Of a stretch of DNA of 64,000 nucleotides, positions 10,691 through 33,156 are shown piece after piece. Both the position numbers and the translations under genes were made by a program. Every line of letters begins with the position of its first letter. Position 1 is the first letter of the stretch. The notes below the pieces were generated by a model that had not been told where the DNA came from, made no database searches, and worked only from the letters and a program-made list of their open reading frames with translations. The stretch lies in assembly GCA_041665365.1 (NCBI GenBank), contig JBAYIY010000005.1:5946-69945 (forward strand). Direction: 5' to 3'. The stretch is from Patescibacteria group bacterium (GTDB lineage: Bacteria; Patescibacteriota; Patescibacteriia; UBA9570).

Positions 10691-12307
10691 TTATACTACA
10701 GTTTTTGTATAACAGTCTTCACAATACACTAACTCTTTTCTATCTGGTGAATAAGTGGTTTCAAATTCGGTTTTACAACCAGTATTCATGCATTGTTTAT
10801 GCCATAATTGATACGGCACACGATGTTTCATACGCTCAATATGTCGGCAGTCTGGGCAAATTTCTGGCCAGGGTATGTTCTGAGTGGCGTAAAACTTCAA
10901 TTCTTGCGGAATTAATTTAAAACTCTTGTGACAGTGTGTGCAATCATAAATTTGTTTAGTCGCATCGGCTTTACCATAAGTGCCAGGCAGCTGATCTTGC
11001 CACATCCAACCGCTAGCGCGCGCTTGCGCTTTGGTTAGCGGAAACATTTCTTGGGCCATCGTCTCATTATACGCATAGGTAGACAGCGCCGGCGAAAAGA
11101 ATTGACCCCACTCGCCGGTTTGTTTCATGTGCTCGATTAATTTATCTTTCAGTGTATTATAATCTGTCTCAGAATACTGTTTATTTAAAATGCAATATTT
11201 TTCATTTTTTAAACCAATACAACCAAAACAATTTTCCGGTCCATTTAAACATTGATCACAGTACAAGTTATTTTGCCCATGCCAAACAATATTACAAAAC
11301 CAATTACCATACGCTTGTCCACCACAAGCATGCGCTTCATAGAGCAGCTCGGCTTCTTCACCGTAAACGGTAAAATCGTAGCAATCTTTCGATTGAAAGA
11401 TGCCAAAACAATACGCACAATGTTCTGAGGTTTTTGTTTGAAAGGAAAATGTTGTAGCCAGATTGCCGACTAAATAATCACCACTACTCATCTCATTGCG
11501 TAAACCACGATAATACTTATACGGTACTGTCAGGGTGAATTCATTAAACTCATCACGCGCTCGGTTAATGCCTGCCCGAGTATCTAATTGATAACTAGCT
11601 AACTTTTTAGCATAGTCTTCCGGGTTATATTGCTGATTAAAAATACAATACGATTTGTTCCGTAAACCCACCGACATAAAACAATTTGAACATCCATTAC
11701 AATCTGTTAAAAAATATGAATCGCGACAATTATTAACATGCCACGAGTAATTGACATTGTAACAATCCTCACTATGCGTGGTTTCGTAACACAGCTCACA
11801 TTTGTGGTTATAACTGCAATCAATTGAATCTTTTACATAGTAGATGCCCAACGAATATAAGGAATTTTCACAATCAGTGGCATCGTACACCATGTAACAA
11901 TTCTTTAATCTATAAACGTGATTACAATAATCACTATTTTCCCCGGTGGCATCATTCATTAAAGCAATGCGCGGTACACGCTGTTTGAGCTCTAACAGTT
12001 GATCAAACAACGGTCGCGTAAAATCAATGTCTTGACCATAATCAAGTGGGTTCCATGTATCACTCCACCAACACGTGCGACAATACACTGTATACTTTTT
12101 ATCCGGTGAATACACAGACAAAGTATTATTACCACACACCGCACACTGGCGTTGATATAAAGTATGTTCATTACGATTCGTTAAACGTAATTGAAACCGA
12201 CACGCCGGACACCGTACCGGCTTAGGTACGCCCAAACGCTTGTAATAAGCCTGATCCGCCTCAGTAATGATGAAACTATGTTGACAGTGCTGACAAGTTG
12301 TTTCCAT
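10691..12307 (-). CDS. Cys-rich double-zinc-ribbon family protein, paralog 3
   Basis: 538 aa. METTCQHCQHSFIITEADQAYYKRLGVPKPVRCPACRFQLRL, central Cys dyads, the FGCIGLKNEKYCILNKQYSETDY...GEWGQFF block, and C-terminal CTHCHKSF...CPDCRH...TTYSPDRKELVYCEDCY. Confidence 0.8.
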   Translation of the reverse strand: METTCQHCQHSFIITEADQAYYKRLGVPKPVRCPACRFQLRLTNRNEHTLYQRQCAVCGNNTLSVYSPDKKYTVYCRTCWWSDTWNPLDYGQDIDFTRPLFDQLLELKQRVPRIALMNDATGENSDYCNHVYRLKNCYMVYDATDCENSLYSLGIYYVKDSIDCSYNHKCELCYETTHSEDCYNVNYSWHVNNCRDSYFLTDCNGCSNCFMSVGLRNKSYCIFNQQYNPEDYAKKLASYQLDTRAGINRARDEFNEFTLTVPYKYYRGLRNEMSSGDYLVGNLATTFSFQTKTSEHCAYCFGIFQSKDCYDFTVYGEEAELLYEAHACGGQAYGNWFCNIVWHGQNNLYCDQCLNGPENCFGCIGLKNEKYCILNKQYSETDYNTLKDKLIEHMKQTGEWGQFFSPALSTYAYNETMAQEMFPLTKAQARASGWMWQDQLPGTYGKADATKQIYDCTHCHKSFKLIPQELKFYATQNIPWPEICPDCRHIERMKHRVPYQLWHKQCMNTGCKTEFETTYSPDRKELVYCEDCYTKTVV

Positions 12308-12314
12308 AAGGTGA

Positions 12315-13877
12315 TTAATATATTAGCTTATTGTAACACCCTTCACAATACACTGTTTCTTTTCTATCTGGTGCATAAGTGGTTTCAAACTCTACCTGAC
12401 ACCCTTTATTCATACATTGACGGTGCCATAAGCGACGCGGATTGCGTAATTTCATTCTATCCAAATGTCGGCACTGCGGACAAAGCTGCGGTACTGGCAA
12501 ATGCCATTGCTGATAATAGGCCAGTTCATTAGCAACTAGGCGATAATTTTTCGCACAGCGCTGACAGGTTGGTAGATTATCAACCTGGTTGTCTAGCTGT
12601 TTTGTGACAGTTTCAGCCATAGGAAAATACTCCTGAGCCACTGTGTCTTGATATGGAAATGGCGACAGTGACAATGGAAAAAATTCTCCCCACTCCCCGT
12701 GTTGTGTCATACCTTGTTTAATTTGTTTTACCAAAGTATTATAATCTGTTTCCGAATAAGACTTATTTAAAATACAATATTGTTGTTTACGTAAACCAAT
12801 GCAACCAAATAAATTCTGGCTGGTAAAACAATGATCACAATAAAACAAATTGGAATTCCCATCCCAACAAATATTTAAACCAAGACTGTTTTTAGTCTGT
12901 AAACTACTATGACATTCGTAAGTTAACTCATTCTCAACTCCACCAATAAATAAATCCCGACTGTCCTTTGTTTGCCGCACATCAAATACATAAGCTGTTT
13001 GCTCCTGGTCAATCACATCAAACCCATAAGTAGTTTGGTAACAATTTTTCATTAAATCACCGGAAGATTGTTCACAATTAATTTGCTCACTGGCTAAATG
13101 CGGTAACGCTATTTCTAGTTTAGCTAGTTGAGCGCGATACTGTGCAATCGTTTCATGTGTCCAATTAACCGCCGCTAAACGTGCTCGGTAGTCAGCTTCA
13201 CTTAATTGTTCATTGAACCAACAAAACTTTTTATTGCGCAAATTAACACAGCCAAAACAATCGCTGCAGTTACGACACGCATATGAAAAATAACAATCCC
13301 GACAATTAACACAGCGTTGTGAAAAAAACACTTGATAACAATCACTGCACTCAACTATTTCGTAACACAATTCACAGCGATACGGCATAATAAAATCCAT
13401 ACAGTCACGCGAGTGAAATGGAAACATACCATACAGACAATTTTCATTATCAATGCCACCGGCTGACAAATATAAATTTTTCCCGGCTACTGCCCACGGC
13501 GCATAATCGCAATTTTCACAATTGCGAGTGGTAATGGCCATGCGCGGCACCACTAATTGTAAAGCCCGAATTTGCTCAAAAAAAGATTGACCCGGTTGAT
13601 ATACCCGACCAAAACTAAGTGGATCCCAAACATCAGACAACCAGCAAGTTTGACAGTATATGGTGTATGGGCTATCTGGTGCATATAATGAAATCACTGC
13701 TTTGCCACATAAGCGGCACTTATCTGCGTACAAACTCCGCTCATTCCGCCACGCCAAGCGCCGCTGTTGCCGACAATCTGGACACAAGGTTGGCTGCGGT
13801 ACAGCCATACGTTGATAAAACTCCAGATCGGCTGGATAAATGGTAAATGTTTGCTGACAATTAGTGCACTTACTCAT
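12315..13877 (-). CDS. Cys-rich double-zinc-ribbon family protein, paralog 4
   Basis: The track start is 13904; I prefer Met10 (MSKCTNCQQTF, ATG 13875-13877) by alignment to the other paralogs. That start lies 2 nt after the RelE stop. Same conserved blocks (FGCIGLRKQQYCILNKSYSETDY...GEWGEFFP...; C-terminal CPQCRH...TTYAPDRKETVYCEGCY). Confidence 0.75.
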   Translation of the reverse strand: MSKCTNCQQTFTIYPADLEFYQRMAVPQPTLCPDCRQQRRLAWRNERSLYADKCRLCGKAVISLYAPDSPYTIYCQTCWLSDVWDPLSFGRVYQPGQSFFEQIRALQLVVPRMAITTRNCENCDYAPWAVAGKNLYLSAGGIDNENCLYGMFPFHSRDCMDFIMPYRCELCYEIVECSDCYQVFFSQRCVNCRDCYFSYACRNCSDCFGCVNLRNKKFCWFNEQLSEADYRARLAAVNWTHETIAQYRAQLAKLEIALPHLASEQINCEQSSGDLMKNCYQTTYGFDVIDQEQTAYVFDVRQTKDSRDLFIGGVENELTYECHSSLQTKNSLGLNICWDGNSNLFYCDHCFTSQNLFGCIGLRKQQYCILNKSYSETDYNTLVKQIKQGMTQHGEWGEFFPLSLSPFPYQDTVAQEYFPMAETVTKQLDNQVDNLPTCQRCAKNYRLVANELAYYQQWHLPVPQLCPQCRHLDRMKLRNPRRLWHRQCMNKGCQVEFETTYAPDRKETVYCEGCYNKLIY

Positions 13878-14139
13878 AAACGTCACGCCGATGTCCAACA
13901 TCAAGAATGATTAATTTAATTGTCGAAAAAGATTCATGACTTAATTGTAAAATCACCCGATAATCACCTACCCGCAAACGATGTGTGGCTGGAGCAAAAT
14001 TATGCAACGGTTTTAAAACCGATATTATATCCGGATGGGTTTTAAGCTGTTTTAGTTTGCTGACAATTCGGCTCTGTTGTACGACATGTAATTTTTTGAA
14101 TCGTTTCTCAGCCCACTGACTAAAAACAAAAGTAACCAT
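13870..14139 (-). CDS. type II toxin, RelE/ParE family
   Basis: 89 aa. C-terminal RVGDYRVILQL...LDVGHRRDVYE matches the RelE/ParE core motif. It lies 3 nt downstream of the antitoxin gene. Confidence 0.8.
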   Translation of the reverse strand: MVTFVFSQWAEKRFKKLHVVQQSRIVSKLKQLKTHPDIISVLKPLHNFAPATHRLRVGDYRVILQLSHESFSTIKLIILDVGHRRDVYE

Positions 14140-14441: not shown

Positions 14442-16013
14442 TCAAGCTACTATTCTTTGATAACAGTCTTCACAATACACTAACTCTTTTCTATCTGATG
14501 CATAAGTGGTTTCGAATTCGTTTTTACAACCTTTATTCATGCATTGACGATGCCACAAGGTCATTGGGTTTTGAAATTTGAATCGTTCCGCCAGACGACA
14601 GTTTGGGCACAAGTGTGGTTGGGGTAGACGCATCTTTTGATAAAAAGCTAGCTCTTGGGCAATAATCTTAAATGGGTGGGTACACTGGGTGGTTTTGGTT
14701 TCAGTTAATGGAAAATATGCTTGAGCCAAAGTTTCATTATAAGTATACATGGATAAATCTAATGGAAAAAATTCACCATACGTGTATCTCAGACCTTTGG
14801 TATCAACGTACGGCATGTCGATCATGTGTTGTTTAATTTTTTTGACTAGATCGTGGTAAGCAGATGCAGAATACTGTTTATTTAAAATACAATACTGTTT
14901 TTTTCTGACACCGACACAACCGAAGATATCGGCTGAATTTATGGCTAACAGCGCATATTCTAAATTACGACAATCCGGCCAGCTCATGATACTAAATTTC
15001 ACATTGTAAACATTCTCCCCTACCCCCACACATTCATAGGCTCGCTCCACATTATTACCCCAGGATAAATAATCATAAGAGTCACGTATGGGATTAAGCC
15101 CACTTAACATAATGTATTTGCAATTTTCGGCCTGACTAACTTGATAAGCCTGATAAGTATGTCTAGAATTATCAACATAATCGCCAGACACACTGTCATT
15201 TTTTTTACCATGCATGTATTTTACTGGGTATTGCAACCAATTATTACTCGCTTCAGTTTTGAGCCGGTGTATTTCAGTATTAGATGTAAAGTCTACGCTC
15301 GCTAATTTAGCCAGGTAGGTGTCTTTATCCAGTGGCTGATTAAACCAATAATAATTTTGATTATGCAAATTAGCTGACCCAAAACAATTGGTGCAACCAA
15401 CTAAATTTCGTGAAAAATATATATCACTAGAATCATTACAATCAATCGAGTAAAAGGTGCGATAACATTTTTTTATGTTACTACTCCAATAACACAATTC
15501 CGACTCGTCAACCATGTTGCAATCAAAACAATCTTTAGATTTAGTGATATTATCGCAATAATAAGAATCTTCGACATAATCAGAATGAAACACCAGATAA
15601 CAATTTTTTAAATGACCCACATTCATACAGTAGTCACTATTCTCCAATGTGGGAGTGTCAGAGCATAATGCCATCAAGGGCACGCGCTGCATGAGTTGTT
15701 TAAATTGTGTAAAAAACGGTTTAGAAAAATCATAGTCAGTGCCATATGTCATCGCCTCCCACTGGTCAGACCACCAACAAGTGTTACAGTACACTGTATA
15801 AGGTTTATCTGAGGAATACATTGATAACATTGACTTACCGCATAAATCACACTGGTCTTGATACAACGACCGCATGTTATAAAAACTCAACCGCCGAATT
15901 AACCGACACTGTGGACACCACGTGGGTGGTGGCACAGCCATTTGTTTATAAAAATCTAAATCCATTTGATCAAGCACAAAGCGTTGCTGACAGCGAACAC
16001 ATTGTTTAATCAT
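14442..16013 (-). CDS. Cys-rich double-zinc-ribbon family protein, paralog 5
   Basis: 523 aa. MIKQCVRCQQRFVLDQMDLDFYKQMAVPPPTWCPQCRLIRRL, Cys dyads, FGCVGVRKKQYCILNKQYSASAY, and a C-terminal CPNCR...NPMTLWHRQCMNKGC...TTYASDRKELVYCEDCY. Its start overlaps the stop of the 923-aa gene (ATGA). Confidence 0.8.
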   Translation of the reverse strand: MIKQCVRCQQRFVLDQMDLDFYKQMAVPPPTWCPQCRLIRRLSFYNMRSLYQDQCDLCGKSMLSMYSSDKPYTVYCNTCWWSDQWEAMTYGTDYDFSKPFFTQFKQLMQRVPLMALCSDTPTLENSDYCMNVGHLKNCYLVFHSDYVEDSYYCDNITKSKDCFDCNMVDESELCYWSSNIKKCYRTFYSIDCNDSSDIYFSRNLVGCTNCFGSANLHNQNYYWFNQPLDKDTYLAKLASVDFTSNTEIHRLKTEASNNWLQYPVKYMHGKKNDSVSGDYVDNSRHTYQAYQVSQAENCKYIMLSGLNPIRDSYDYLSWGNNVERAYECVGVGENVYNVKFSIMSWPDCRNLEYALLAINSADIFGCVGVRKKQYCILNKQYSASAYHDLVKKIKQHMIDMPYVDTKGLRYTYGEFFPLDLSMYTYNETLAQAYFPLTETKTTQCTHPFKIIAQELAFYQKMRLPQPHLCPNCRLAERFKFQNPMTLWHRQCMNKGCKNEFETTYASDRKELVYCEDCYQRIVA

Positions 16014-18781
16014 ATATTTTTCAGCTCATTTAGTCTTTTTTTCACTCTTTCATGAACTGATTGAGCCACGGCTGATTTATCTGAATCCATAAAACAACTC
16101 TCTAGTCTGGTTAATATACTAGATTGCGTTACAGCTTCACCAGCCCCAAATACTCGTTTTCTAATGGCAAGATTAATTTCACGTATTACTATTTTTTTTA
16201 ATTCTTGTGCCAGTGCTCTAACTTGATTTGGTAATAATACTAACACCGCTTTTTGAAGATTATCTATTGATCCAGGGATCAATTTCTTTACTTCAGCAGT
16301 TGTAGAGTTATGCTGAAACATTACTACACCTGACCAAAGGGCAGCTCTGTAATCTTCTTGGTAACACAGACGCAGAGACAATTGATCAATTGCCTGTTCA
16401 CCCTGTTGCATGCTAATAAAACCAGGATCATTTGGAATATATTGTTCAGCTAAACGAAATAACTTTGTCTGCCAATCATGTTTGTAATTTATTATATTAT
16501 CAAAATATATATTATCAAAAAGATTAGGATCATCATCTCTCATTTTTTTTAAAGTATCTCTCCACTGATCTAAAGTTGTAATTCTATCTATTTTTTTTGT
16601 TTTAGGTTGGCCTTCTTCATAAACTGTAACTTCTTGTGCTTCAAGTGGTTTGGCAAACTCAAGTAAGGCATTATACTTTGGATCAAATAATTTTTGTAAT
16701 AAAACTTTCCGGTCGGCTTCGGGCATGGCTTCAATAATCGCCTCAAAATCACCCTCGCGTACTATTCTACCCCATTGTTCTACAAATTGATCAGGTGTTA
16801 CGATGCGTTGTAGTACCCGATATATCGCTCCCGGTTCACCGTTTGGTCGGTAATTATAAATTGTCTCTATATATTTTTTAAATTTCTCTGATTCTGGAAC
16901 ATTTGGGTCATCTTCAATAAGACGTTGCCCAATAATAAACACTTTACTATCTACTTCTTTCGCCATCGCATAAAGTCTAGTTGGTTTAAGAATTTTTCGC
17001 CAAACTGCTGCCACAGTTTTTGGTTTAACCCCCTGTCTTTTTTGCCAGGCACGACGTGCTCGTTGAAACGTAGATTCATCTTTCATAGCTTGCGCCTCAC
17101 GTTCTACTAATCCATCATACCATTTCAACCATTGTTCTTGAGTGATATTTGGATGCGCTTCCCATACATCTCTTAATCCAAGTTGACGATCCAGTCGATG
17201 TAGTCTTTGTTCTTTAGTCAAATCATGCTGAAATTCATCACACAGTAACGCTGTATCAGATACAGTTTCCCAAATTTGTAAGCGCATATCTTCAAATATA
17301 GGTCCAGTTAGGGTTTTTAATTTCATAGTTCCAACACGAGCCTCTTTAATTTTTTTAATCTCAGGATCATTTTGCATAACTTCAGGTAAACTATTCCAAG
17401 TAGCAAAAAATACATCTGGAGTACCAGTTTTAAGACGGTGTAGAGTTCTTTCACGTTCGGCAAAGGAGACAACTTTCAACATGGCTTCAAGATCATGGCG
17501 GATTTTGTACCCCGGCATAAACTGCATATACATACCAGCTAACAACACTGGGTGAACTGTTTGCTCAGTGGCCGCTTGTCTAAATTGAGCATCAATAGTG
17601 CGCATGGCAGCATCAGAGATGGCGGTTAATTCCGGCATGGGGGTATCAACCTCAAGTAAGGCTTCAACTCGTTTTTTAAATAGTTGTAGACCTTCATTAT
17701 CTTCTGGAATGGATAAATGTAATGACCGATATAAGGCGAGATGAAACACATTACCAAATACCCCACTGCGAGCGGCGGTTGGCTCGGCATAATCATGGCC
17801 AGGGGTAACGCCGATCATTTGTAAAAACAATAATGGATTAGTAGCTTTAACTTTTTCAGCAGCATTAAGTAAGGCAATAACATCTTCAGAATCACCATGG
17901 GCAAAGTGTAGCGTGGCGCGATAATCAGCCAGTTCAGCTGGAGACATGTCGTCTCGTAATAGCTTACTGTGTTCATCAATCCAAGTAATCAGCGTTTGAT
18001 AAGCCGCGTGATCCGGGGCATGTTCTAAATCATAGGCTAAAGTATCTGATCGACGCCGTAATTCATTGGGTAAAGTACGTGGTGCCCTATCACGCCTGAT
18101 CTCTAATCTGGTTTGCCAATAGTCTTGATGAGTTGCACCATCTAATGGATCAATTTCTCCCACCCATTTAATAGCTTCTTTACCGGGATGAACCGGGGTA
18201 GTGAAATCTAAAATTGGAAAAGTAGGATCTTGGTCATGCACTGCCTGCATCAAACCAAATAATGAAGTGACGCGTTCGGCACCGGCTTCCCCCCTGTATA
18301 GACCAGTTTGAACAGCATCTAAAACATCAATCGTTCTAATCAGTTCCTGTAGATTATAAAATTTTGGGTTTAATTCACCAATTAAATATCCTTGTAAGGT
18401 GCGTAGTTGAGTTTGTTCAGCTGGGTTTAATGGTGCACCATTTCCTGCCGCGCGATAGAGTAATGCTGGATACGATGTATTTACAGCAAAAGCCTCTAAG
18501 CGTGTTTCAATGTCCCCCACTAATACCACTGCATCAGACTTATCCGCTACTCGTCTGGATAAACTCTCTAAGGCTCCATCGTTGGTACCAGTTCTAAAAG
18601 TAACATCTAAAACTTGCTGCGCCGACTTAGGTGGGACAGTTTTGATCTCATCTTTAACTATTTCTACACCAGTATCGGCAGGTTGCAATTTACGACCTGT
18701 ATCCACAGTTCTTGCTTGTTTTCCTCTTCTCCCTCTACCTCGAGTTTCTACAGACATAATTACTCCAACAAGTCTTTCCAA
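16010..18781 (-). CDS. large hypothetical protein (923 aa), Arg-rich N-terminus
   Basis: Long uninterrupted ORF with the same codon usage as its neighbours. Basic N-terminus (RGRGRRGKQARTVDTGRK). Predicted soluble and helical. No motif I recognise. Translationally coupled at both ends. Confidence 0.7.
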   Translation of the reverse strand: MERLVGVIMSVETRGRGRRGKQARTVDTGRKLQPADTGVEIVKDEIKTVPPKSAQQVLDVTFRTGTNDGALESLSRRVADKSDAVVLVGDIETRLEAFAVNTSYPALLYRAAGNGAPLNPAEQTQLRTLQGYLIGELNPKFYNLQELIRTIDVLDAVQTGLYRGEAGAERVTSLFGLMQAVHDQDPTFPILDFTTPVHPGKEAIKWVGEIDPLDGATHQDYWQTRLEIRRDRAPRTLPNELRRRSDTLAYDLEHAPDHAAYQTLITWIDEHSKLLRDDMSPAELADYRATLHFAHGDSEDVIALLNAAEKVKATNPLLFLQMIGVTPGHDYAEPTAARSGVFGNVFHLALYRSLHLSIPEDNEGLQLFKKRVEALLEVDTPMPELTAISDAAMRTIDAQFRQAATEQTVHPVLLAGMYMQFMPGYKIRHDLEAMLKVVSFAERERTLHRLKTGTPDVFFATWNSLPEVMQNDPEIKKIKEARVGTMKLKTLTGPIFEDMRLQIWETVSDTALLCDEFQHDLTKEQRLHRLDRQLGLRDVWEAHPNITQEQWLKWYDGLVEREAQAMKDESTFQRARRAWQKRQGVKPKTVAAVWRKILKPTRLYAMAKEVDSKVFIIGQRLIEDDPNVPESEKFKKYIETIYNYRPNGEPGAIYRVLQRIVTPDQFVEQWGRIVREGDFEAIIEAMPEADRKVLLQKLFDPKYNALLEFAKPLEAQEVTVYEEGQPKTKKIDRITTLDQWRDTLKKMRDDDPNLFDNIYFDNIINYKHDWQTKLFRLAEQYIPNDPGFISMQQGEQAIDQLSLRLCYQEDYRAALWSGVVMFQHNSTTAEVKKLIPGSIDNLQKAVLVLLPNQVRALAQELKKIVIREINLAIRKRVFGAGEAVTQSSILTRLESCFMDSDKSAVAQSVHERVKKRLNELKNI

Positions 18782-20823
18782 GATACTTTATTGGCTGGCG
18801 CATTGATTTGCGGTGGAGTGATTGGTTTTGGTTTAACCGGTTGTGGTTGTACAGGTTTATTTGGTTGCGGTGGTACCTGTTGGGGCAATTCACCACCTCT
18901 ATTTCGCCGTCGTCGGCGCCGTTTGCGTTTTTGTCCATCACCGGTTGGAGTTGGTTGAACATTCTGTGGTTTTGGTTGTTGAACCACGGGTTTTTCCAAA
19001 ACAACACGTGGAGCCGTACCATTTTTTAATGCCTGTAGGGGCAATTCATGAATTGCCCCTACAGGGTGAATTGGTTCAATCTCATCATCCGGCACATCTT
19101 CGAACTCATCATCATTATCTTCATCAACAACCAGATCAACTTTCTTACTCCCCTCTCCTGCAGAAGGAGAGGGGCTGGGGGCGAGGTCTCTCAATTGATG
19201 ATTAATAAAACTAATCCGTGGCCGAGTTGATGCATTATTATTTTCTACTTCATCTTCTTTAATAGCTTTTGCTAATTCGACTACTGCTGGTTTATTTGGT
19301 TTTGTTTGTTCAACTTGAATTGGCTTAGCTGGTACTTCACCGGGAATAAAATTACTGGTATCAACCTGCCCATTAGTTGCTTCGGCTTCATTGACGGTTA
19401 GCTGTACACCCTCTTTAGACATTTTAGCTGGTTTGTCATCGTCTGATAATTCAGGTTCAGCAGCGGTGATAATTTGATCCGGCCAATCCATCTCATCGTC
19501 TTTGGGTGAGGTTGTTGGAGCTATCTCGGGGTTAACATTGGGTCGATTAATTTGTACGCCACTCCAACGAATAATCCGATCTTCCACCACGGCTTGAGGG
19601 CGAGCATACCGTTCGCGTGAGACTTTAATCACTTTGTCTTTATTGTCGGTGGCACCGGTGGCTGGTGGTAAACCAATAGCTGAGAATGGTTCGGTGGCCA
19701 CACCATCAACCATTAAACGCATGCAAACAGTATATTTTTTCAGATTAACAATATCGGCTGGTAAAAACTGTGGCGCGAATTCTAACTCTAACTCGGCAGC
19801 ATCAGTTGCACCCACTCGAAACACAATCATTGTCCCGACGTTACCAAACACAGCGGCTTTTACCACATCACCTAATTGTTCAAAATACTGATGCGCCATG
19901 ATTAAACACAAGCGATATTTTCTGGCTTCAGATAAAATTCCAGCAAAACTATCGGTGGCGAAATTTTGAAACTCATCAACATATAAATAGAAATCTTTCC
20001 GCTCCTCTTCTGGAATATCTACCCGGCTCATGGCCGCAATTTGCAATTTTGTAATCATCATGGCTCCCAGCAAGGCCGAATTTTCTTCACCAATTCTGCC
20101 TTTAGCCAGATTCATAATTAAAATCTTCTGATTGTCCATCACATCACGCATCTCGATAGTGCTCTTCGATTGTCCGACAATGTTACGAATAATCGCTGAA
20201 GCTAAAAACTGACCGACTTTGTTTTGAATTGGCGCAATCGCTTCAGTTCTAAATTTTTCTGAATAATTGGCGTATTCATCGGCCCAAAAGGTTTTCACCA
20301 CTGGGTCGGTCACTTTATCAACCACTTTTTTACGATAGGCTTTATCGACCAACATGCGCATTAAACCCAACAACGTGCTGCCGGGATATTCTAATAACGC
20401 CAAAATGGTATTGGTCATAATGTACTCCATGCGTGGTCCCCAAGAATCAGCCCAGATTTTCTTGAACACACCCACTAAACCATAGGCCACTAGATGTTTA
20501 TAATCTTCGCCAATACTTTCTAAAATATTAAACGCAATCGGATATTTGGTATCAGACGGATTAAAGTAGATCACATCATTAACCCGATTAGTGGGAATGA
20601 ACTCTAAAATCTTTTCGGCTAAATCACCATGTGGGTCAACTACGGCTACGCCATGCCCAGCCCGAATATCACTAATAATCGCATTTTCCAACATGGTGGA
20701 TTTACCCATGCCGGTCTTACCCACTAAATACATATGCCGGCGCCGATCATCCCGTTTAATACCAAATTTACGCCGTTGGTTACGGAAGTTAGTTTCGGCA
20801 AAGACGGCAATTTCGCTGGACAT
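18760..20823 (-). CDS. P-loop ATPase, TraD/VirD4 (type IV coupling protein)/HerA-FtsK-like
   Basis: Walker A MYLVGKTGMGKST and Walker B FYLYVDEFQNF. T4CP-like motifs VVDPHGD and LIMAHQYFEQL. The ~200-aa C-terminal tail is disordered, Pro/Asp/Glu-rich, and ends in KRKRRRRRRNRGG plus a P/Q-rich repeat. Confidence 0.75.
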   Translation of the reverse strand: MSSEIAVFAETNFRNQRRKFGIKRDDRRRHMYLVGKTGMGKSTMLENAIISDIRAGHGVAVVDPHGDLAEKILEFIPTNRVNDVIYFNPSDTKYPIAFNILESIGEDYKHLVAYGLVGVFKKIWADSWGPRMEYIMTNTILALLEYPGSTLLGLMRMLVDKAYRKKVVDKVTDPVVKTFWADEYANYSEKFRTEAIAPIQNKVGQFLASAIIRNIVGQSKSTIEMRDVMDNQKILIMNLAKGRIGEENSALLGAMMITKLQIAAMSRVDIPEEERKDFYLYVDEFQNFATDSFAGILSEARKYRLCLIMAHQYFEQLGDVVKAAVFGNVGTMIVFRVGATDAAELELEFAPQFLPADIVNLKKYTVCMRLMVDGVATEPFSAIGLPPATGATDNKDKVIKVSRERYARPQAVVEDRIIRWSGVQINRPNVNPEIAPTTSPKDDEMDWPDQIITAAEPELSDDDKPAKMSKEGVQLTVNEAEATNGQVDTSNFIPGEVPAKPIQVEQTKPNKPAVVELAKAIKEDEVENNNASTRPRISFINHQLRDLAPSPSPSAGEGSKKVDLVVDEDNDDEFEDVPDDEIEPIHPVGAIHELPLQALKNGTAPRVVLEKPVVQQPKPQNVQPTPTGDGQKRKRRRRRRNRGGELPQQVPPQPNKPVQPQPVKPKPITPPQINAPANKVSWKDLLE

Positions 20824-20825
20824 AT

Positions 20826-22319
20826 TTATACAAATGGTAAATTAGATGGCGCTTCTGGTTCGACTTTAATTGCTGGAGTTGCGGGAGATGTTTGAGTTGT
20901 TGGTGTTTCCATGACGGGTTCAACCATGACGACAGGTTTAACAGTAACACCACCGCCTTTTTCTAACTGCACCGGAATGGCAGCACTAGCCTCAGCTTCA
21001 TCATAGCGCAATAACGTCGGCGGTTCCACACCACGCGATTGCGCCTTAGCCACATACGGCGCTCGCACATCAATTGACGGAAAGTGAAATAAAGCCGTAA
21101 TCTCTTCGGTTGATAAAATAAACCCTTCATGTTCACCTCGTTCCATGTCGCGTGACTTATATGCCCAATACATCCGGCGATAACGATTCAATACCCGATA
21201 CTTTGGAAATACAAACCGCCAAGATAAACAATTTTGATCAGTCCGCGTAATTTCACCCTCAGTAAAAGAATTAATATAACGATACAAACGCAAACCGCTT
21301 AACATACCACGACGAACTTTTTTGGAATCAACCATAGCCGGTGGAGCAAAATACATAAAGCGCACTTTTGAATGAAACGGCCAACGCGAGGCTTTTTTAT
21401 CAACTTCCTCAACAAATTCCTGTTCTGGTTTAGTCATACGCTGTCTTTCTTCTAAACGAGTATCATCGTGTGTTTCGGCCGCCGCTGATTCACCGCCAAA
21501 CAGAGCCTGATTAGTCATTTGCAGTGTTGATATGACAGTAGATTGAACGTGATCCATAATATCCGGGCCAGCATGGCCAGATTTGCCTGGCTCAACTAGA
21601 TTCATGATGGTTTCTTGTGCCCGGATTTTAAGTTTACCAAGATCGGCTGGTTGAATCATAATTTGATACCACAATTTTTCACCGGGTTGCAAGCGACTCA
21701 TAAATTCCAAAAGGTTGGCAAATGGATCAACCGCCTTCTGCGCTAAACTATGTTCAAACGCCGGATAAGGTTTAATCGGTAAAACATCGTCACCTTCCAA
21801 ACGCATCTCTGATCCCCATCCGGTCACTTTACGAGAATTAATCATTTCTAATGAGATATCTTTCGTATAATCTTCGACTTCAGACATGATGGCATCGGGG
21901 TAATGAGAATAAAATGCCGCCTGCACCATTTCTTTATAATATTTTGGAGCACGTACATAATAAGTAATATAGCCACCATCACTGACAATTTCGAAAGAGT
22001 ATTGCTCTTGTACAAAACCCAACCACCAAGTTTCGTACCAATCGGGTTGGTTATAAATACCATGCAGTTGTACAAAAATCTGTTCTACTGCCTTCATACT
22101 CTGCTCATTGTTCAGCGGCACTTCAATGCGATACATGACATGTTTGGTATGGTGTTTAAACTTTTCTTGAATCCAAAACAACCAACCGGTAAAGGCCATT
22201 TTTATCATGATCGGTATAAAAATCAATGCCCCACCATGACCAAGCAAAAACCATAACGCTTGAAACGGGTTATTGCCGTACTCTTTTAAAATATATTCAA
22301 GCAGCGGGGGCATACACAA
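20826..22319 (-). CDS. membrane-anchored hypothetical protein (497 aa)
   Basis: Two N-terminal TM helices (ALWFLLGHGGALIFIPIMI / FTGWLFWI), a large soluble domain and a low-complexity Pro/Thr-rich C-terminus. It ends 3 nt before the ATPase gene starts. Confidence 0.7.
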   Translation of the reverse strand: MCMPPLLEYILKEYGNNPFQALWFLLGHGGALIFIPIMIKMAFTGWLFWIQEKFKHHTKHVMYRIEVPLNNEQSMKAVEQIFVQLHGIYNQPDWYETWWLGFVQEQYSFEIVSDGGYITYYVRAPKYYKEMVQAAFYSHYPDAIMSEVEDYTKDISLEMINSRKVTGWGSEMRLEGDDVLPIKPYPAFEHSLAQKAVDPFANLLEFMSRLQPGEKLWYQIMIQPADLGKLKIRAQETIMNLVEPGKSGHAGPDIMDHVQSTVISTLQMTNQALFGGESAAAETHDDTRLEERQRMTKPEQEFVEEVDKKASRWPFHSKVRFMYFAPPAMVDSKKVRRGMLSGLRLYRYINSFTEGEITRTDQNCLSWRFVFPKYRVLNRYRRMYWAYKSRDMERGEHEGFILSTEEITALFHFPSIDVRAPYVAKAQSRGVEPPTLLRYDEAEASAAIPVQLEKGGGVTVKPVVMVEPVMETPTTQTSPATPAIKVEPEAPSNLPFV

Positions 22320-23391
22320 CAGTATAACGACCGTCTGGTAATTTACTAAATAATCGACGATTAGTGAGGGCTAAATGAATGGTATTTTTTTTCACAATCC
22401 GTTGTTCCAATACGGCTGTGACAAGTTGATCGCGTGTTAATGGACCACGCTCGGTTAAGATTTTTTTCACAATATCAGCTACGGCGCCTTTTTCGTAACC
22501 CCACTCCTTAAGAGCATAAATGCCACGACCCACTAACACATACTGGCTATTTAAAATTAATTCATTATGCACCGTGGGTGGATGGGCTTCTTTTTTAAAA
22601 ACTTCGGTAATTTGCTGAGCAATGTCGACAAAATGCATCGGTTTACTTACTTTTTTCAAAATTAAATAGATTTTATCATTCATGCGTTTTGGTACCACGC
22701 TCCCCCACGCCCGTAAACCGTATTCATCAAATGGATTATGATCGATCGCATCACTCACTTCCAATAAAGCGATAATAGTTTTTTCAGTTAATCTTGCATC
22801 AGGTGGAATTAGGTTCATAATACCAGCTACATTGAGAGGGATATTGGCCGTACCAATAGTGCGCACTAACAAATCGAGCGACTCGGTAATAAACTTGATG
22901 TCAGCGGTCTTAATGCGCCAACTTTTCATAAAAGTTTTGTCCGGACCGACTGACATTACCCGTGCACTGAGCAATTCAGTCAAAATAAACACTAAAGCCG
23001 CCTCCAGTTCGACCGTACTTTTTTCCAATAAAACCTCACTTAATAAATGGCTCTCTTGCATGATACCCCCGTGCTCTTCCAAGGTGGTTAGAATAACATG
23101 CTCAATCGGTTTTAAAACTACTTGTAAACTTGGATGTAATTTAATTTTACTCACAGCTAGGTTTTCGATCTGACGAATCCGTTCCCGAGTCACGGTATAT
23201 GATACTCCGATCGCTTCTAGGGTTTCTTTTGGTACACCATTTAATCCGTAACGCCGCTGTAACACATCAGCTTCTTTATCATTTAATTTGGCTAAAAGTA
23301 CACGAACAACATCACCAGGTTCAAACTCCTGTTTTTCTTGATCCTCTTTGCTCGCAATAATGCGATCAAGAATAGAAACTCCCATATCCAT
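22297..23391 (-). CDS. sigma-70 region 4 domain protein with a ~290-aa C-terminal extension (non-canonical sigma-like DNA-binding protein)
   Basis: Residues ~35-85 (DVLQRRYGLNGVPKETLEAIGVSYTVTRERIRQIENLAVSKIK) are a textbook sigma-70 region 4.2 HTH. No region 2 or 3 is recognisable. Overlaps the downstream gene by 23 nt. Confidence 0.75.
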   Translation of the reverse strand: MDMGVSILDRIIASKEDQEKQEFEPGDVVRVLLAKLNDKEADVLQRRYGLNGVPKETLEAIGVSYTVTRERIRQIENLAVSKIKLHPSLQVVLKPIEHVILTTLEEHGGIMQESHLLSEVLLEKSTVELEAALVFILTELLSARVMSVGPDKTFMKSWRIKTADIKFITESLDLLVRTIGTANIPLNVAGIMNLIPPDARLTEKTIIALLEVSDAIDHNPFDEYGLRAWGSVVPKRMNDKIYLILKKVSKPMHFVDIAQQITEVFKKEAHPPTVHNELILNSQYVLVGRGIYALKEWGYEKGAVADIVKKILTERGPLTRDQLVTAVLEQRIVKKNTIHLALTNRRLFSKLPDGRYTVVYAPAA

Positions 23392-23400
23392 AATAAGCGG

Positions 23401-23429
23401 AGTATATCACTTTCTTTACAATCTGTCAA
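23401..23429 (-). promoter_or_regulatory. near-consensus sigma-70 promoter, TTGACA-17 nt-TATACT, 9 nt upstream of the sigma-r4 gene ATG (leaderless or near-leaderless)
   Basis: On the minus strand: gatTTGACAgattgtaaagaaagtgaTATACTccgcttattATG. Confidence 0.45.
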
Positions 23430-26524: not shown

Positions 26525-27916
26525 TTATGGAACATTTATTACAACATCGCCCACTTGACCCCAATTATACAACCATTCGGCATTGGTCGCATCAATGTTA
26601 ATACAACCATGACTCATTTTGTGACCAAAGTTGTGATGCCAGTAGGCATAGTGTAGGTGAAATGGTCCAGAAAAACGTAGGTTCCATTTGACGTTCTTTA
26701 AATCATAGTTATCAGGATTGTTTGTACCATAATTCCAGGTATAATCTTTCATGAATATTTTTTCTTGCACAGCAAATTGACCAAGCGGTGTGGGATATTT
26801 ATCAATCCCGGTGGAAACATAAAACTCTCGGACTAATTCACCATATTCGTAGACGCGCGTTTTTTGTTCGGATATATCAGTTTCAATATAGCGAATTAAA
26901 TCCGCTCGGCCTTGGGCGCGATTCTTGCCCGGGACGGTTACGACGTCAATCTTACCATCGCCAGTCACATCACCCAGTGCCAGGTTTAAGCCACCGCGAA
27001 AATCTGCTGGGTAAGCAAAAAAACTTTTACTGGTGTTCGCTCCATACCCTTCAAAAAAAATAACTTGTGGGCCACCACTTTGCCGAGGCGTAACCGCTAC
27101 TTCAGCCATACCATCATGATCAATGTCACCCGCGGCTACATTAGTACCACTATATAATCCGGAAAAAGCTTTCCAGTTCCCTAATATGTCACCGTTATTT
27201 TTATAAACTTTCACCCAATCTTCACCGGCTGAATAAATTGACATGACCAGTTCATCATCTTTACCACCATCCACATTGGCGGTTGTTATAGCGACACCAC
27301 CAACATTGTCACTGGCAAAAGGATGAAACTCAGTCCCCAAAAAACGACCTTTACGCGAAAACACGCGCACATCCGCAGCACCCCCTGGGCCGGCCGCGAC
27401 CGCTATTTCAGAAATGCCATCGCCGTTATAATCACCCACGGTAACATCACAGCCACCGCGAAAATTAGAAGCAAACGCAAAAAAACCTGGGCCAAATACA
27501 CTTTTGCCCGCAGCATCAAACACCCGCACCTGTGGCCCACCGCCAGCACCAACTCCGGTGATAATCTCCGCTTTACCATCGTGGTTCAAATCACCGGTGG
27601 CAACTTTTACACCAGTGCGTAAAGACTGATCGTAAGCAAACCACTGTGATACTAACGTACCGTCACCTTCAAACACTTGCACCATTGGGCCACCGTCCCG
27701 GCCGGCTCCAACCACAATTTCATCAACTCCATCGCCATCCACATCACCCACTGCTACATCAAGACCACCATCAAAACTACCATTGAGGGCGTTAAAACTA
27801 GTAGTTTGATTAAAAGATTTATCAAATACTCGTACCTCGGGTGCCATACTATCGTAGGCCAAGGTCAGCACTGGAAAACACAAACTAAGTGTTATTACTA
27901 GACCATATTTATGCAT
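26525..27916 (-). CDS. FG-GAP repeat protein fused to a C-terminal L,D-transpeptidase (YkuD) domain
   Basis: Signal peptide, then repeated GDVDGDGVDEIVVGAG..GGP.V.VF units (FG-GAP/VCBS). C-terminal YkuD catalytic motif YWHHNFGHKMSHGCINIDATNAEWLYNW. Confidence 0.8.
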   Translation of the reverse strand: MHKYGLVITLSLCFPVLTLAYDSMAPEVRVFDKSFNQTTSFNALNGSFDGGLDVAVGDVDGDGVDEIVVGAGRDGGPMVQVFEGDGTLVSQWFAYDQSLRTGVKVATGDLNHDGKAEIITGVGAGGGPQVRVFDAAGKSVFGPGFFAFASNFRGGCDVTVGDYNGDGISEIAVAAGPGGAADVRVFSRKGRFLGTEFHPFASDNVGGVAITTANVDGGKDDELVMSIYSAGEDWVKVYKNNGDILGNWKAFSGLYSGTNVAAGDIDHDGMAEVAVTPRQSGGPQVIFFEGYGANTSKSFFAYPADFRGGLNLALGDVTGDGKIDVVTVPGKNRAQGRADLIRYIETDISEQKTRVYEYGELVREFYVSTGIDKYPTPLGQFAVQEKIFMKDYTWNYGTNNPDNYDLKNVKWNLRFSGPFHLHYAYWHHNFGHKMSHGCINIDATNAEWLYNWGQVGDVVINVP

Positions 27917-27940
27917 GGCGCTAGTGTAGCAGGTTCAGTC

Positions 27941-29335
27941 TTATTGTTCAATAACCGCAAGGTCGCCCACATTCATCCAACCATAGAGCCACTCGGCATT
28001 GGTATAAGAAATGTTCACACAACCATGGCTCATAGGATGACCAAAATTATTATGCCAGTAGGCACCGTGTAAATAATAATGAGGTCTAAACTCAAGATTA
28101 TATAAGGTATTTGGTAGATAAAAACCAGGACCAGAATATAACTTACTATAGATTTTTCTTAGAATATGATACTCCCCTGGCGGTGTGCCCATACCCGGGA
28201 CACCGGACGAGATTAAAAAACTATTCACCAAATAACCCTGTTCGTATGCATACATTCTTTGTTCACTTAAATCTACGCGCACATATTTAGCCACATCAGT
28301 GCGACCATCTGGTTTTAGTTTACCAGGCAAGGTGACGATGCGATCTTGGTAGACTGCTATATTCACGCCACTGTGAAAATCTTCTTCATAGGCAAAGAAA
28401 CCAGGATTGATATCTTTACCATTGGCCTCATACATTTTTACTTGTGGACCGCCCTTACCATGTACACCTACCACTATTTCAACTTTACCATCATTATCAA
28501 TGTCACTGGCCGCGACATTCACGCCACCTCTAAACCCTTCACCGAAAACTTTAAATTCGTTAACGATAGTTTGTTGGGCATCGTAGTTATAAATTTTAAC
28601 CCAAGCATCGCCATCTTGTTGAATAGTAGTGATCACTTCGGCGGCTGGATCGTTATCGACATTACCAACAGCGACACTGACACCACCCTGGTTGTCATTG
28701 GCAAACGGATGAAACTCATATGTTTTTTGTTTACCGGTCGCTGAGAAAACACGCACGGTTGGTGCCATTTTTTCTCCACTGCCCACTACGATGTCAGCTT
28801 TACCGTCGGCATCAACATCTCCCACGGCGACATTGACTCCGCCATTGTAAGATTGATCGAAGGCGAAGAAGCCTACTGTTTGATCCACCCGACCACTGCC
28901 ATCGAACACGCGAATATGTGGACCACCACCAACTTTTGGCCCAGTGATAATTTCGGTTCGACCATCTCCATCCACATCACCAGCGGCTACATTCACCCCT
29001 GCTAGCATGTTGGTATCGTACGCGTAGAACTGATTAATAAATGAACCATCTAATCGAAAGGTTCTAACTTGCGGCCCGCCTCCTAAACCGGCCGCCGTAA
29101 TTATTTCTGGTATGCCATCTGTTCCTAGATCAGCGATCGCTATTGTACCGCCGCCCGTAAAGGCTTGATCGTAAGCAAAAAAATGAGTAGTTTGGTTGTA
29201 CTGTCCATTACTATTCGAAAACACCCGTACTTCCGGTGCTCGCAAATATGTGGCCGCCTGAACATTGGTGGCGACAGTTGTTCCAATCAGAAGGCAAAAT
29301 AAACTCACTATTATGTAGTGTGTCTTCATAATCAA
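27941..29335 (-). CDS. FG-GAP repeat protein fused to a C-terminal L,D-transpeptidase domain (tandem paralog)
   Basis: Signal peptide, FG-GAP units (GDVDGDGRTEIITG..GGPHIRVFDG) and C-terminal YWHNNFGHPMSHGCVNISYTNAEWLYGW. Confidence 0.8.
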   Translation of the reverse strand: MIMKTHYIIVSLFCLLIGTTVATNVQAATYLRAPEVRVFSNSNGQYNQTTHFFAYDQAFTGGGTIAIADLGTDGIPEIITAAGLGGGPQVRTFRLDGSFINQFYAYDTNMLAGVNVAAGDVDGDGRTEIITGPKVGGGPHIRVFDGSGRVDQTVGFFAFDQSYNGGVNVAVGDVDADGKADIVVGSGEKMAPTVRVFSATGKQKTYEFHPFANDNQGGVSVAVGNVDNDPAAEVITTIQQDGDAWVKIYNYDAQQTIVNEFKVFGEGFRGGVNVAASDIDNDGKVEIVVGVHGKGGPQVKMYEANGKDINPGFFAYEEDFHSGVNIAVYQDRIVTLPGKLKPDGRTDVAKYVRVDLSEQRMYAYEQGYLVNSFLISSGVPGMGTPPGEYHILRKIYSKLYSGPGFYLPNTLYNLEFRPHYYLHGAYWHNNFGHPMSHGCVNISYTNAEWLYGWMNVGDLAVIEQ

Positions 29336-32005: not shown

Positions 32006-33034
32006 TCAGTTCTGTTTTAATTTGTAATACGTTGCCTTGCCTTTACCGTGTGCTGTAATCATTTTTTGATCAACGAGATAACGCAAATCGGCGGCGCGAG
32101 TTGATTTGGCGCGTTTTACCAATGTGGCATAAAACGCATCATTGATCGAGCCATGGGCTCGAATATAGTTCATGATAATATGGTGATACTCTTTTAAACC
32201 TGAAGCGGGGGCTTGGCTGGTGTTATCTAGCTCAGTCTTCACTCGTATTAGTTCATCAATGATTCCGTCCGTAAAATATTCTAGCCACACCGTAAAATCA
32301 ACTTTCAAATCATAATAACTACCTCTCTCTCCCACCAGAGAAAAATACTTTGTCACATTATTATTATAATAACGCTCAAAACTAAATAATTGAAAAGTAT
32401 TTAAACCTAATCCAGCTAACAATACTTTGGTAGCCAAACGCACGGTTCGACCATTGCCATCAATAAACGGATGAATTAAAACAAATTGTTTGTGAAAAAT
32501 TCCGGATAAGATTAAAGCATCAATCGTGCCTTGTTGAGTAGCAATAAACTCTATTAAATCTCCGAGTAAATTTGGCACATCCTGCTGATCTGGTGGCCAA
32601 TAAACTGTTTGACCAATGCTTGGATCACGTACAAACACTGGCGCAGTTCTTATCACTCCTGAGGATGATTCCAACATGACTCCTGTTGTTACTTGACGAT
32701 GAATTTTTAATATTAAAGATTCATCAAGTATATGTCTGCCAGTTTTTAGTTGATCATTTAACATCATTAAAGCCTGATTATAATTCAACACTTCTCGTTG
32801 GGTATCACGAATATGCGCCGGAGCTTGTTTGAGAAGTTGTTTCACATCTGTTAATGGTAAGGGATTCCCCTCGATACTAGTTGAAGCATGAGCTGACACT
32901 TCACGTGCAATTCGTTCCAGTTCAAATAAAACTACTTGCGGAAAACGCCGGTTATTCAAAATTTCCACTATCTGGCTAATTTTCTTAATATTAGCCAGTA
33001 ATTGATTGGTAATAGTGTACTTGGGTTCAAACAT
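32006..33034 (-). CDS. Fic/DOC family protein
   Basis: Fic motif HPFIDGNGRTVRL and a C-terminal winged-helix tail (AHGKGKATYYKLK). Confidence 0.85.
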   Translation of the reverse strand: MFEPKYTITNQLLANIKKISQIVEILNNRRFPQVVLFELERIAREVSAHASTSIEGNPLPLTDVKQLLKQAPAHIRDTQREVLNYNQALMMLNDQLKTGRHILDESLILKIHRQVTTGVMLESSSGVIRTAPVFVRDPSIGQTVYWPPDQQDVPNLLGDLIEFIATQQGTIDALILSGIFHKQFVLIHPFIDGNGRTVRLATKVLLAGLGLNTFQLFSFERYYNNNVTKYFSLVGERGSYYDLKVDFTVWLEYFTDGIIDELIRVKTELDNTSQAPASGLKEYHHIIMNYIRAHGSINDAFYATLVKRAKSTRAADLRYLVDQKMITAHGKGKATYYKLKQN

Positions 33035-33059: not shown

Positions 33060-33088
33060 ATAGACGCATTATAGACGATTCATAGACG
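33060..33088. promoter_or_regulatory. triple 11-nt-periodic direct repeat ATAGACG in the divergent Fic/MFS intergenic region (candidate operator)
   Basis: ATAGACG at 33060-33066, 33071-33077 and 33082-33088, lying 26-54 nt upstream of the Fic start. A TATAAT box at 33144-33149 precedes the MFS gene ATG (33157). Confidence 0.35.
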
Positions 33089-33156
33089 ATTGTCAAACTG
33101 AAATTGCACAGATAGACCACAATATGGAGTTTGTTTTTGTGATATAATACGACACA

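Follow-up and report, generated by a model that had tools for sequence, protein, structure and literature searches.

In this study we analysed a 64-kb stretch of DNA from a Patescibacteria group bacterium (contig JBAYIY010000005.1), referred to here as the window. On its minus strand, an open reading frame (ORF) starting with ATG (22297..23391) encodes a protein of 364 aa in which the tail of a sigma factor is joined to four winged helices. We named this protein R4WH. The initial annotation of the DNA had placed it at the head of a gene cluster, and the gene order agrees with this. R4WH is followed on the same strand by a second cistron (20826..22313) for a DUF8128 protein of 495-497 aa (PF26449), which was identified through the precomputed annotation of its homologues and overlaps the stop of R4WH by 17 nt. 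The third cistron (18760..20823, minus strand) encodes a 687-aa ATPase without a transmembrane (TM) segment, which according to Pfam resembles VirD4, TraD and TrwB, i.e., type IV coupling proteins (T4CPs).

The operon promoter was read directly from the DNA and was also recovered in a promoter scan. It consists of the -35 hexamer TTGACA (23424..23429, minus strand) and, after a spacer of 17 nt that ends in TGa, the hexamer TATACT. Together, TGaTATACT forms an extended -10 element (23401..23409, minus strand; TG at 23409-23408, TATACT at 23406-23401). The 9 nt that separate this element from the ATG at 23391 (ccgcttatt; 23392..23400, minus strand, by direct reading) contain no Shine-Dalgarno (SD) sequence. 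A region-4-only gene behind a near-consensus TTGACA-17-TATACT promoter, whose -10 ends 9 nt before the ATG, had been described from a first inspection of the letters, and we could confirm this arrangement on the minus strand. At a loose threshold, the R4WH region does not contain an excess of promoter-like sites (43 vs 42.5 in shuffles). The R4WH promoter is the sole site of this region with 11/12 matches plus the TG. Only three sites with at most one mismatch are found on both strands of the 64-kb window. Two of these lie between genes in the correct orientation, namely the R4WH promoter and a perfect site at 33096. The latter (TTGACA-17-TATAAT; 33068-33096, minus strand) is the only 12/12 match of the window and is located 33 nt 5' of a gene of the Fic/DOC family (32006-33034). 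A further TATACT lies inside the 3' end of R4WH (22314-22326, minus strand), 7 nt before the DUF8128 ATG, where the codons of a conserved ...GRYT... motif form it. It is probably coincidental, since it has no matching -35 element (3 mismatches).

We then compared the promoter with those of related loci. A search that aligned only the C-terminal part of the protein yielded 86 such loci on metagenome contigs, and the window proteins were searched against their ORFs. A contig scan with full-length alignment, keyed on VTRER[IV]RQI, returned mostly RpoD among the matches listed, and only the loci L001-L003 were true members. For each gene, the 260 nt upstream were searched for TTGACA-N16-18-TATAAT and the best match was scored; matches with at most two mismatches were considered good. 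Good promoters precede R4WH in 48/73 loci (26/73 with at most one mismatch), DUF8128 in 8/73, the ATPase in 0/51 and SecF in 0/35. For SecD, 7 of the 24 loci have a good match, and none of the 24 reaches one mismatch or fewer, so that the R4WH promoter is more consensus-like than the SecD promoter of the same loci. Random windows gave good matches in 37/1000 cases. The promoter is therefore real and conserved and, as had been claimed for the window, near-consensus, and these counts make R4WH the first gene of an operon whose conserved promoter combines a perfect -35 with an extended -10. Of the 48 good R4WH promoters, 35 have TTGACA as their -35 hexamer and 10 have TTGACT. Nearly all share the 17-nt spacer, and 40 carry a TG ahead of the -10. 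When 46 non-identical loci were profiled for information content, signal was seen only at the -35, the TG and the -10, and no operator-like conserved motif emerged outside the core promoter except for scattered copies of TTGAC or GTCAA. These copies are enriched: a further TTGAC/GTCAA within 45 nt upstream of the -35 was observed in 14/46 loci (L083, L087, L096, L098, L099, L101, L109, L120, L123, L125, L142, L146, L148 and L153), compared with 3.4-4.2 expected, and 14 loci were reached in 0/2000 shuffles or random-window draws. Eight of the extra copies are inverted, and hence they are not tandem promoters on the same strand. Some form inverted repeats with the -35, as in the case of AGTCAAgcccTTGACT in L098.

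The initial annotation had also proposed a leaderless or near-leaderless mRNA. The geometry of this proposal is sound at the locus itself. The -10 ends 9 nt before the ATG, and judging from the usual distance between a -10 and the transcription start, the R4WH transcript would begin 0-3 nt before the start codon, leaving a 5' untranslated region of about 0-3 nt. However, the spacing is not shared by most relatives. Of 31 scorable orthologous loci, only ~6 have their first in-frame start 6-11 nt after the -10; in the others this distance ranges from 14 to >100 nt, based on approximate starts. Within the window, an SD sequence (GGAG, GAGG or AGGA within 20 nt of the start) precedes 4/48 ORFs of at least 150 aa and is absent from the other 44/48. 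In 11/48 window genes a hexamer resembling a -10 ends 4-12 nt ahead of the start codon, compared with 7.5% of random positions; examples are the genes at 33157 (plus strand), 4646-5701 (minus strand) and 5718 (plus strand). Leaderless transcripts thus look common in the source organism. Since SD sequences are rare and start-proximal -10 hexamers frequent, the near-leaderless layout would be a habit of the genome and not a feature of the R4WH family, and a near-leaderless organisation of the source genome is plausible.

Residues 6-88 of R4WH (23128..23376, minus strand) are homologous to the C-terminal end of primary sigma factors, comprising the end of region 3.2 and regions 4.1 and 4.2 with the recognition helix VTRERIRQIE. 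A canonical region 4.2 helix-turn-helix (HTH) near the N-terminus had been recognised before, and the peptide quoted for it, GVSYTVTRERIRQIENLAVSKIK, corresponds to residues 62-84. Region 4 is indeed present and withstands a profile-based test of significance. The Pfam model Sigma70_r4 matches residues 32-84 with 44.6 bits (gathering score 24.1, E 1e-11), and a profile of the family built from 59 members detects RpoD/SigA region 4 among PDB sequences with an E-value of 2e-17. The homology, however, starts earlier than region 4.2. The PDB profile match is a single stretch (query positions 26-92, or 6-89 for S. aureus SigA) that always falls on the C-terminal end of the sigma factor, and all 60 listed matches are group-1 or group-2 sigmas. 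Furthermore, the NCBIfam models for RpoD and RpoS align R4WH from residues 6-9 to residues 84-94 onto their last ~85 positions. Using Foldseek, R4WH and SigA region 4 share 42-46% identity, and in a BLASTP comparison residues 9-86 align to residues 360-435 of the 444-aa RpoD from a Paceibacterota metagenome-assembled genome (MAG) with 44% identity. According to these alignments R4WH begins in the C-terminal part of region 3.2, and its sigma-like part is longer than region 4.2 and extends from late region 3.2 through 4.1 and 4.2.

The similarity to group-1 sigma factors (RpoD/SigA) includes the fold, the 42-46% identity and the linker between regions 3.2 and 4. The helix VTRERIRQIE is identical to residues 582-591 of E. 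coli sigma70, in which R584, E585, R588 and Q589 contact the -35 element. A tblastn search with an approximate sigma70 region-4 query gave 46% identity over 61 aa. R4WH also keeps the counterparts of R554, E555, R562 and T572-E574 of sigma70, whereas those of K593 and R596 are replaced (L78 and S81). Across the 59 R4WH homologues, V67, T68, R69, E70, R71, R73, Q74, I75 and E76 are invariant, and the motif (I/L/V)TRER(I/V)RQ is kept even in members that are only ~35% identical elsewhere. Isolated sigma region 4 reportedly binds -35 DNA without the remaining sigma factor (Dombroski 1992, cited in PMC11156646; Campbell 2002).

What follows region 4 in R4WH sets it apart from a sigma factor. The initial annotation had recognised no region 2 or 3 in R4WH, and none was detectable by sequence profile or in the AlphaFold model. 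Nor does any part of the 64-kb window encode a sigma region 2. With respect to the sigma-70 and extracytoplasmic function (ECF) families, R4WH thus contains region 4 and lacks region 2. The order of domains in sigma factors, sigma-2 and then sigma-4, is not found either: sigma-4 is located N-terminally, at residues ~25-88 of 364, and in contrast to group-1 sigmas it is not preceded by regions 1-3 and does not form the end of the protein but is followed by four winged helices. Without region 2 or 3, R4WH would not be a sigma factor, and on the basis of profiles and the structural model a true sigma factor is essentially excluded. The earlier idea of a highly divergent sigma factor for this module, ECF-like or smaller and steering RNA polymerase (RNAP) to the module promoters, could draw on the bona fide region 4 and on the position of the gene at the operon head. 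However, instead of a sigma-2 helical bundle, residues 89-358 were modelled with high confidence as four winged helices, and the N-terminal position of region 4 reverses the order seen in sigma factors. Such a divergent sigma factor is extremely improbable. We know of no way in which a protein without region 2 could bind the beta' coiled coil or melt the -10 element. We also considered that R4WH might supply region 4 in trans to a truncated RpoD. This was judged unlikely, because no region 2 lies in the window and the single RpoD of the candidate phyla radiation (CPR) that was examined (L028, 444 aa) carries its own region 4.

The initial annotation had left the remaining ~290 aa as an unknown domain and called for structure prediction and profile searches. 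An AlphaFold2 model based on the family alignment (predicted local distance difference test score, pLDDT, 89.9; predicted template modelling score, pTM, 0.76) shows an N-terminal helix, sigma-4 (25-85) and then four winged-helix-like modules, so that the unassigned part turned out to be a confidently predicted tandem array of winged helices that, by model and profiles, includes a HARE-HTH domain. All four modules are encoded on the minus strand. According to the model's secondary structure and to conservation and charge, wH1 (residues 89-160; 22912..23127) is variable and acidic. The same holds for wH2 (residues 165-226; 22714..22899), delimited by model, alignment and conservation, which ends in a conserved NPFDEYG. 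The third module is the HARE-HTH (residues 236-297, ~237-294 in the model; 22501..22686), the most conserved part of the protein, placed by profiles and model. The array is completed by wH4 (residues 304-358; 22318..22482; model, alignment and conservation), which is basic and conserved. Conservation is concentrated in the recognition helix of sigma-4 and in the HARE-HTH/wH4 pair, which is the best conserved and most basic portion; within the HARE-HTH, 19 columns are at least 90% conserved.

HARE-HTH is the fold of the N-terminal domain of the RNA polymerase delta subunit. In R4WH itself the Pfam HARE-HTH match stays below the cut-off (17.5 vs 25.9 bits), but PF05066 matches are precomputed for most of the 120 closest homologues. 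Together with the conserved motifs and the predicted winged-helix fold, this places the domain in the HARE-HTH superfamily. The delta model TIGR04567 (RNAP_delt_lowGC) aligns to residues 236-297 with an E-value of 4e-7, at 30 bits where the cut-off is 42, and the family profile matches S. aureus delta with E 0.054. R4WH ends with ...YTVVYAPAA directly after wH4 and lacks the long acidic disordered C-terminal domain of delta; short acidic tails are present in some homologues only. Since the delta scores are sub-threshold while the homologues carry PF05066, R4WH has the HARE-HTH fold but is not an orthologue of delta. It shares with Firmicutes delta (RpoE, TIGR04567) the pattern ...KPxHF...(V/I)HNEL...(Y/F)VLVGRGxYxLxEW. 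It differs by being about twice as large, by its sigma-4 and three additional winged helices, by the missing acidic domain and sub-cut-off scores, and by its occurrence in Patescibacteria within an ATPase operon. No solved structure matched full-length R4WH; the matches were limited to sigma-4 and generic winged helices, together with a loose resemblance to UFL1/DDRGK1. The tandem winged helices of UFL1/DDRGK1, TFIIE and Rpc34/Rpc82-type proteins are architectural analogies only (TM-score 0.22, 14% identity). R4WH is also distinct from stand-alone YlxM/UPF0122 and LuxR/GerE-type HTH proteins, as it has no Pfam or NCBIfam match to them, is multi-domain and lies much closer to RpoD region 4.

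R4WH belongs to a widespread patescibacterial family with Sigma70_r4 and HARE-HTH domains, as judged from full-length homology and the same domain order. Its sequence matches, at 100% identity, a MAG protein listed by NCBI as 'sigma factor-like helix-turn-helix DNA-binding protein [Patescibacteria group bacterium]'. More than 100 other full-length homologues are 46-71% identical to R4WH across at least 96% of its length. The named close homologues are all from Patescibacteria or Kerfeldbacteria, and MAGs of Parcubacteria, Peregrinibacteria and Falkowbacteria contain the more distant members. One source labels a homologue 'RNA polymerase delta subunit'. When the C-terminal 270 aa were searched alone, without the sigma part, 1,129 clusters at 50% identity were found at E ≤1e-3 and 365 at E ≤1e-30. 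Nearly all of them are 340-410 aa long with the match starting at residue ~85-110, and the architecture of the family is therefore fixed. We found no paper on the R4WH family in a search that reaches few subscription journals, and likewise nothing relevant on HARE-HTH combined with sigma region 4 or on sigma factors or winged helices of Patescibacteria. The main text of the Southlakia transposon sequencing (Tn-seq) paper contains nothing on sigma factors, T4CPs or VirD4. R4WH is thus a sigma-4-derived HTH protein of a family that is annotated but uncharacterised, and its architecture and conserved operon are undescribed. Sequence comparison indicates that it descends from sigma region 4, with the C-terminal ~85 residues of a primary sigma factor fused to four winged helices.

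The gene order of the window, secD-secF, R4WH, DUF8128, ATPase, is largely conserved in the related loci. Counting only loci with enough flanking DNA, DUF8128 lies directly downstream of R4WH on the same strand, often overlapping, in 62/67 loci, the ATPase follows downstream in 40/46, and SecF is located upstream in 32/51. DUF8128 is not found directly downstream in L002, L099, L112 and L153. The DUF8128 protein has one N-terminal TM segment and a soluble domain with a VirB4/TrwK-like fold. Pfam detects TrwB_AAD_bind (E 6e-14), TraG-D_C and DUF87 in the ATPase, while its scores against the NCBIfam models for TraD, VirD4 and CedD are far below the cut-offs (45 vs 366 bits). The ATPase does not contain its own DNA-binding domain. 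It ends in a low-complexity tail of ~300 aa, in which a strongly acidic block, VVDEDNDDEFEDVPDDEIE, precedes a poly-arginine run, KRKRRRRRRNRGG. Together, DUF8128 and the ATPase look like a split, membrane-anchored ATPase of the VirB4/T4CP type. A classical T4CP system is not what we found, because the ATPase lacks a TM segment, its scores are sub-cut-off, and neither relaxase nor VirB or other mating-pore genes are seen in the R4WH operon. Across 2,918 Patescibacteria genomes, a survey reported 5,713 VirD4-like homologues, of which only 148 lie close to virB4, and suggested exaptation (PMC12102498); R4WH is not mentioned there as a partner of the ATPase. A defence system was considered and rejected. 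The only PADLOC match of R4WH was a local one of region 4 to MzaA (30.6 bits), the NCBIfam MzaA model gave 58 bits against a cut-off of 800, and PADLOC matches of the ATPase to mad8 and HerA were weak.

Further genes flank the operon on the minus strand. A 923-aa ORF (16010-18781) directly after the ATPase overlaps it by 22 nt; it had no Pfam, NCBIfam or PADLOC match and was not found in the related loci. It is followed by five paralogues of ~520-560 aa with an N-terminal treble-clef zinc finger (zf_Tbcl) between 6458 and 16013 (6458-8089, 8086-9771, 10691-12307, 12315-13904 and 14442-16013). This run is interrupted by a TrmB-type regulator (9801-10580), and similar runs of paralogues lie 3' of the ATPase in L081 and L082. 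Upstream of secDF, two tandem paralogues (26525-29335) carry both FG-GAP repeats and a YkuD L,D-transpeptidase domain, an arrangement that is kept in the closest related loci (L081, L082, L085-L090).

What could such a protein do? The invariance of the -35-contacting residues across 1,129 clusters argues for an invariant target, for which the -35 hexamer is the obvious candidate. This fits the suggestion of the initial annotation that R4WH could be a -35-binding regulator. We consider it quite possible, although short of probable, that R4WH is a protein that binds -35 hexamers and autoregulates its three-gene operon. This reading is favoured because of the invariant contact residues, the perfect -35 and extended -10 of its own promoter, and the extra hexamers near this promoter. 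In this model, the sigma-derived domain 4 would still recognise TTGAC(A) hexamers of the -35 type, and the basic, conserved HARE-HTH and wH4 would form a second surface for DNA or a partner. R4WH would be made from the first cistron of the R4WH - DUF8128 - VirD4/TraD-like ATPase operon, driven by the near-consensus promoter with perfect -35 and extended -10. It would then sit on the -35 of this promoter and, in many relatives, on nearby TTGAC half-sites, and compete with region 4 of the housekeeping sigma factor, so that negative autoregulation would set the level of the operon. An extended -10 lessens the dependence on -35 contacts and would here leave a basal level of expression that is independent of the -35. 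R4WH may well act at other -35 elements, too. The data show the domain identities, the invariant contact residues, the operon structure, the conserved promoter and the enriched half-sites, whereas DNA binding, its target, the sign of regulation and any action at other promoters are predictions.

Several points speak against this autoregulation. The R4WH promoter of the window itself has no second half-site. A dedicated autoregulator has no obvious need for four winged helices or for the tight conservation of the HARE-HTH, and binding to every -35 hexamer would have a global effect and not one specific to a single operon. The tight linkage to the ATPase gene would fit a structural partner equally well, and the homology to the 3.2/4 linker hints at contact with RNAP and not at DNA binding alone. 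Moreover, the near-consensus promoter elsewhere in the window (33096) implies that promoter quality by itself may mean just high expression.

The near-obligate linkage to the ATPase pair keeps alive a role of R4WH as a DNA-recognition subunit or adaptor, which we regard as possible but somewhat unlikely. It would bind TTGACA-type sites, or use its HARE-HTH/wH4 pair, and hand chromosomal or incoming DNA to a machine formed by DUF8128 and the ATPase as a split VirB4/VirD4-like ATPase. Analogues would be the relaxosome accessory proteins that act on coupling proteins and the winged helices with which FtsK-gamma and Streptomyces TraB recognise DNA motifs. With these, R4WH shares a DNA-binding module that is genetically coupled to an ATPase of the T4CP superfamily, although in the case of R4WH the functional link is putative. 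The genes are on the same strand and often overlap, by 17 nt in the window, and the presence of five domains of DNA-binding type in one protein is more in keeping with an adaptor than with a simple repressor. The ATPase is a member of the DNA-translocating TraD/VirD4/CedD/HerA superfamily and has neither a TM segment nor its own DNA-binding domain, while DUF8128 would supply the membrane anchor and the VirB4-like fold. The location of most patescibacterial VirD4-like homologues away from virB4, with the exaptation suggested for them (PMC12102498), would fit as well. Unlike the readers attached to FtsK, HerA or T4CPs, R4WH is a separate, sigma-4-derived polypeptide, and its operon contains no relaxase gene, oriT or mating-pore genes. 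On the other hand, the cargo of the ATPase could be protein instead of DNA, a -35 hexamer would be unusual as a signal for loading, four loci lack DUF8128 directly downstream, and the conserved strong promoter with its extra half-sites is better explained by regulation. A bolder combination of both ideas appears distinctly improbable to us. Here, R4WH would be a promoter reader for a machine other than RNAP, tethering -35 hexamers to the membrane-anchored split VirB4/VirD4-type ATPase and competing with sigma-A genome-wide.

It also seems unlikely, albeit worth keeping in view because of the 3.2/4-linker homology and the delta-type HARE-HTH, that R4WH is a general RNAP-associated factor of Patescibacteria, acting either as a decoy for sigma-4 or as a specificity factor similar to delta. 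As sigma-4 is located on the beta flap, the 3.2C/4 part of R4WH would contact the flap and the RNA exit channel, and/or the HARE-HTH would contact beta', and the protein would modulate or substitute for region 4 of the housekeeping sigma factor. The homology that reaches from residues 6-9 onward into the 3.2/4 linker, which lies in the RNA exit channel of the holoenzyme, would fit such a role, as would the delta-type fold, the homologue labelled as delta subunit, the very wide distribution of the family with its fixed architecture and the acidic C-terminal tails of some members that recall delta. However, the delta matches are below the family cut-offs, the R4WH of the window has no acidic tail, and binding to the flap does not require invariance of DNA-contacting residues. 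Delta binds with its N-terminal domain between the beta' shelf and jaw (PMC11156646), and a compact protein of 364 aa, as modelled here, would be unlikely to bridge shelf and jaw with the flap. In addition, the CPR RpoD examined has its own region 4, and a housekeeping RNAP factor is not expected to stay tied to one operon.

We therefore return to R4WH as a predicted -35-binding autoregulator, and to what it would mean. The ultra-small Patescibacteria account for a large part of bacterial diversity, but have tiny genomes whose regulation is little understood, and R4WH represents a widespread, lineage-specific family among them. What is surprising is a free-standing, invariant reader of the -35 element from a primary sigma factor that is combined with a delta-type domain and tied to an orphan T4CP-type ATPase, with a function that is deduced. 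If the regulatory reading is correct, R4WH would be a regulator built unlike any known, in which the -35-reading end of a sigma factor was cut off and joined to winged helices. It would also provide a testable handle on the thousands of orphan VirD4-like ATPases left unexplained in the 2025 patescibacterial survey. A minimal machine of a new kind for handling DNA would emerge if R4WH delivers DNA to the ATPase. Should it tether promoters to this ATPase, the operon, which is usually next to secDF, would encode a CPR-specific apparatus that uses promoter elements as handles, with possible roles in DNA translocation, segregation or the coupling of transcription sites to the membrane. Finally, competition of R4WH with sigma-A at -35 elements would constitute a new kind of global transcription control in these bacteria.

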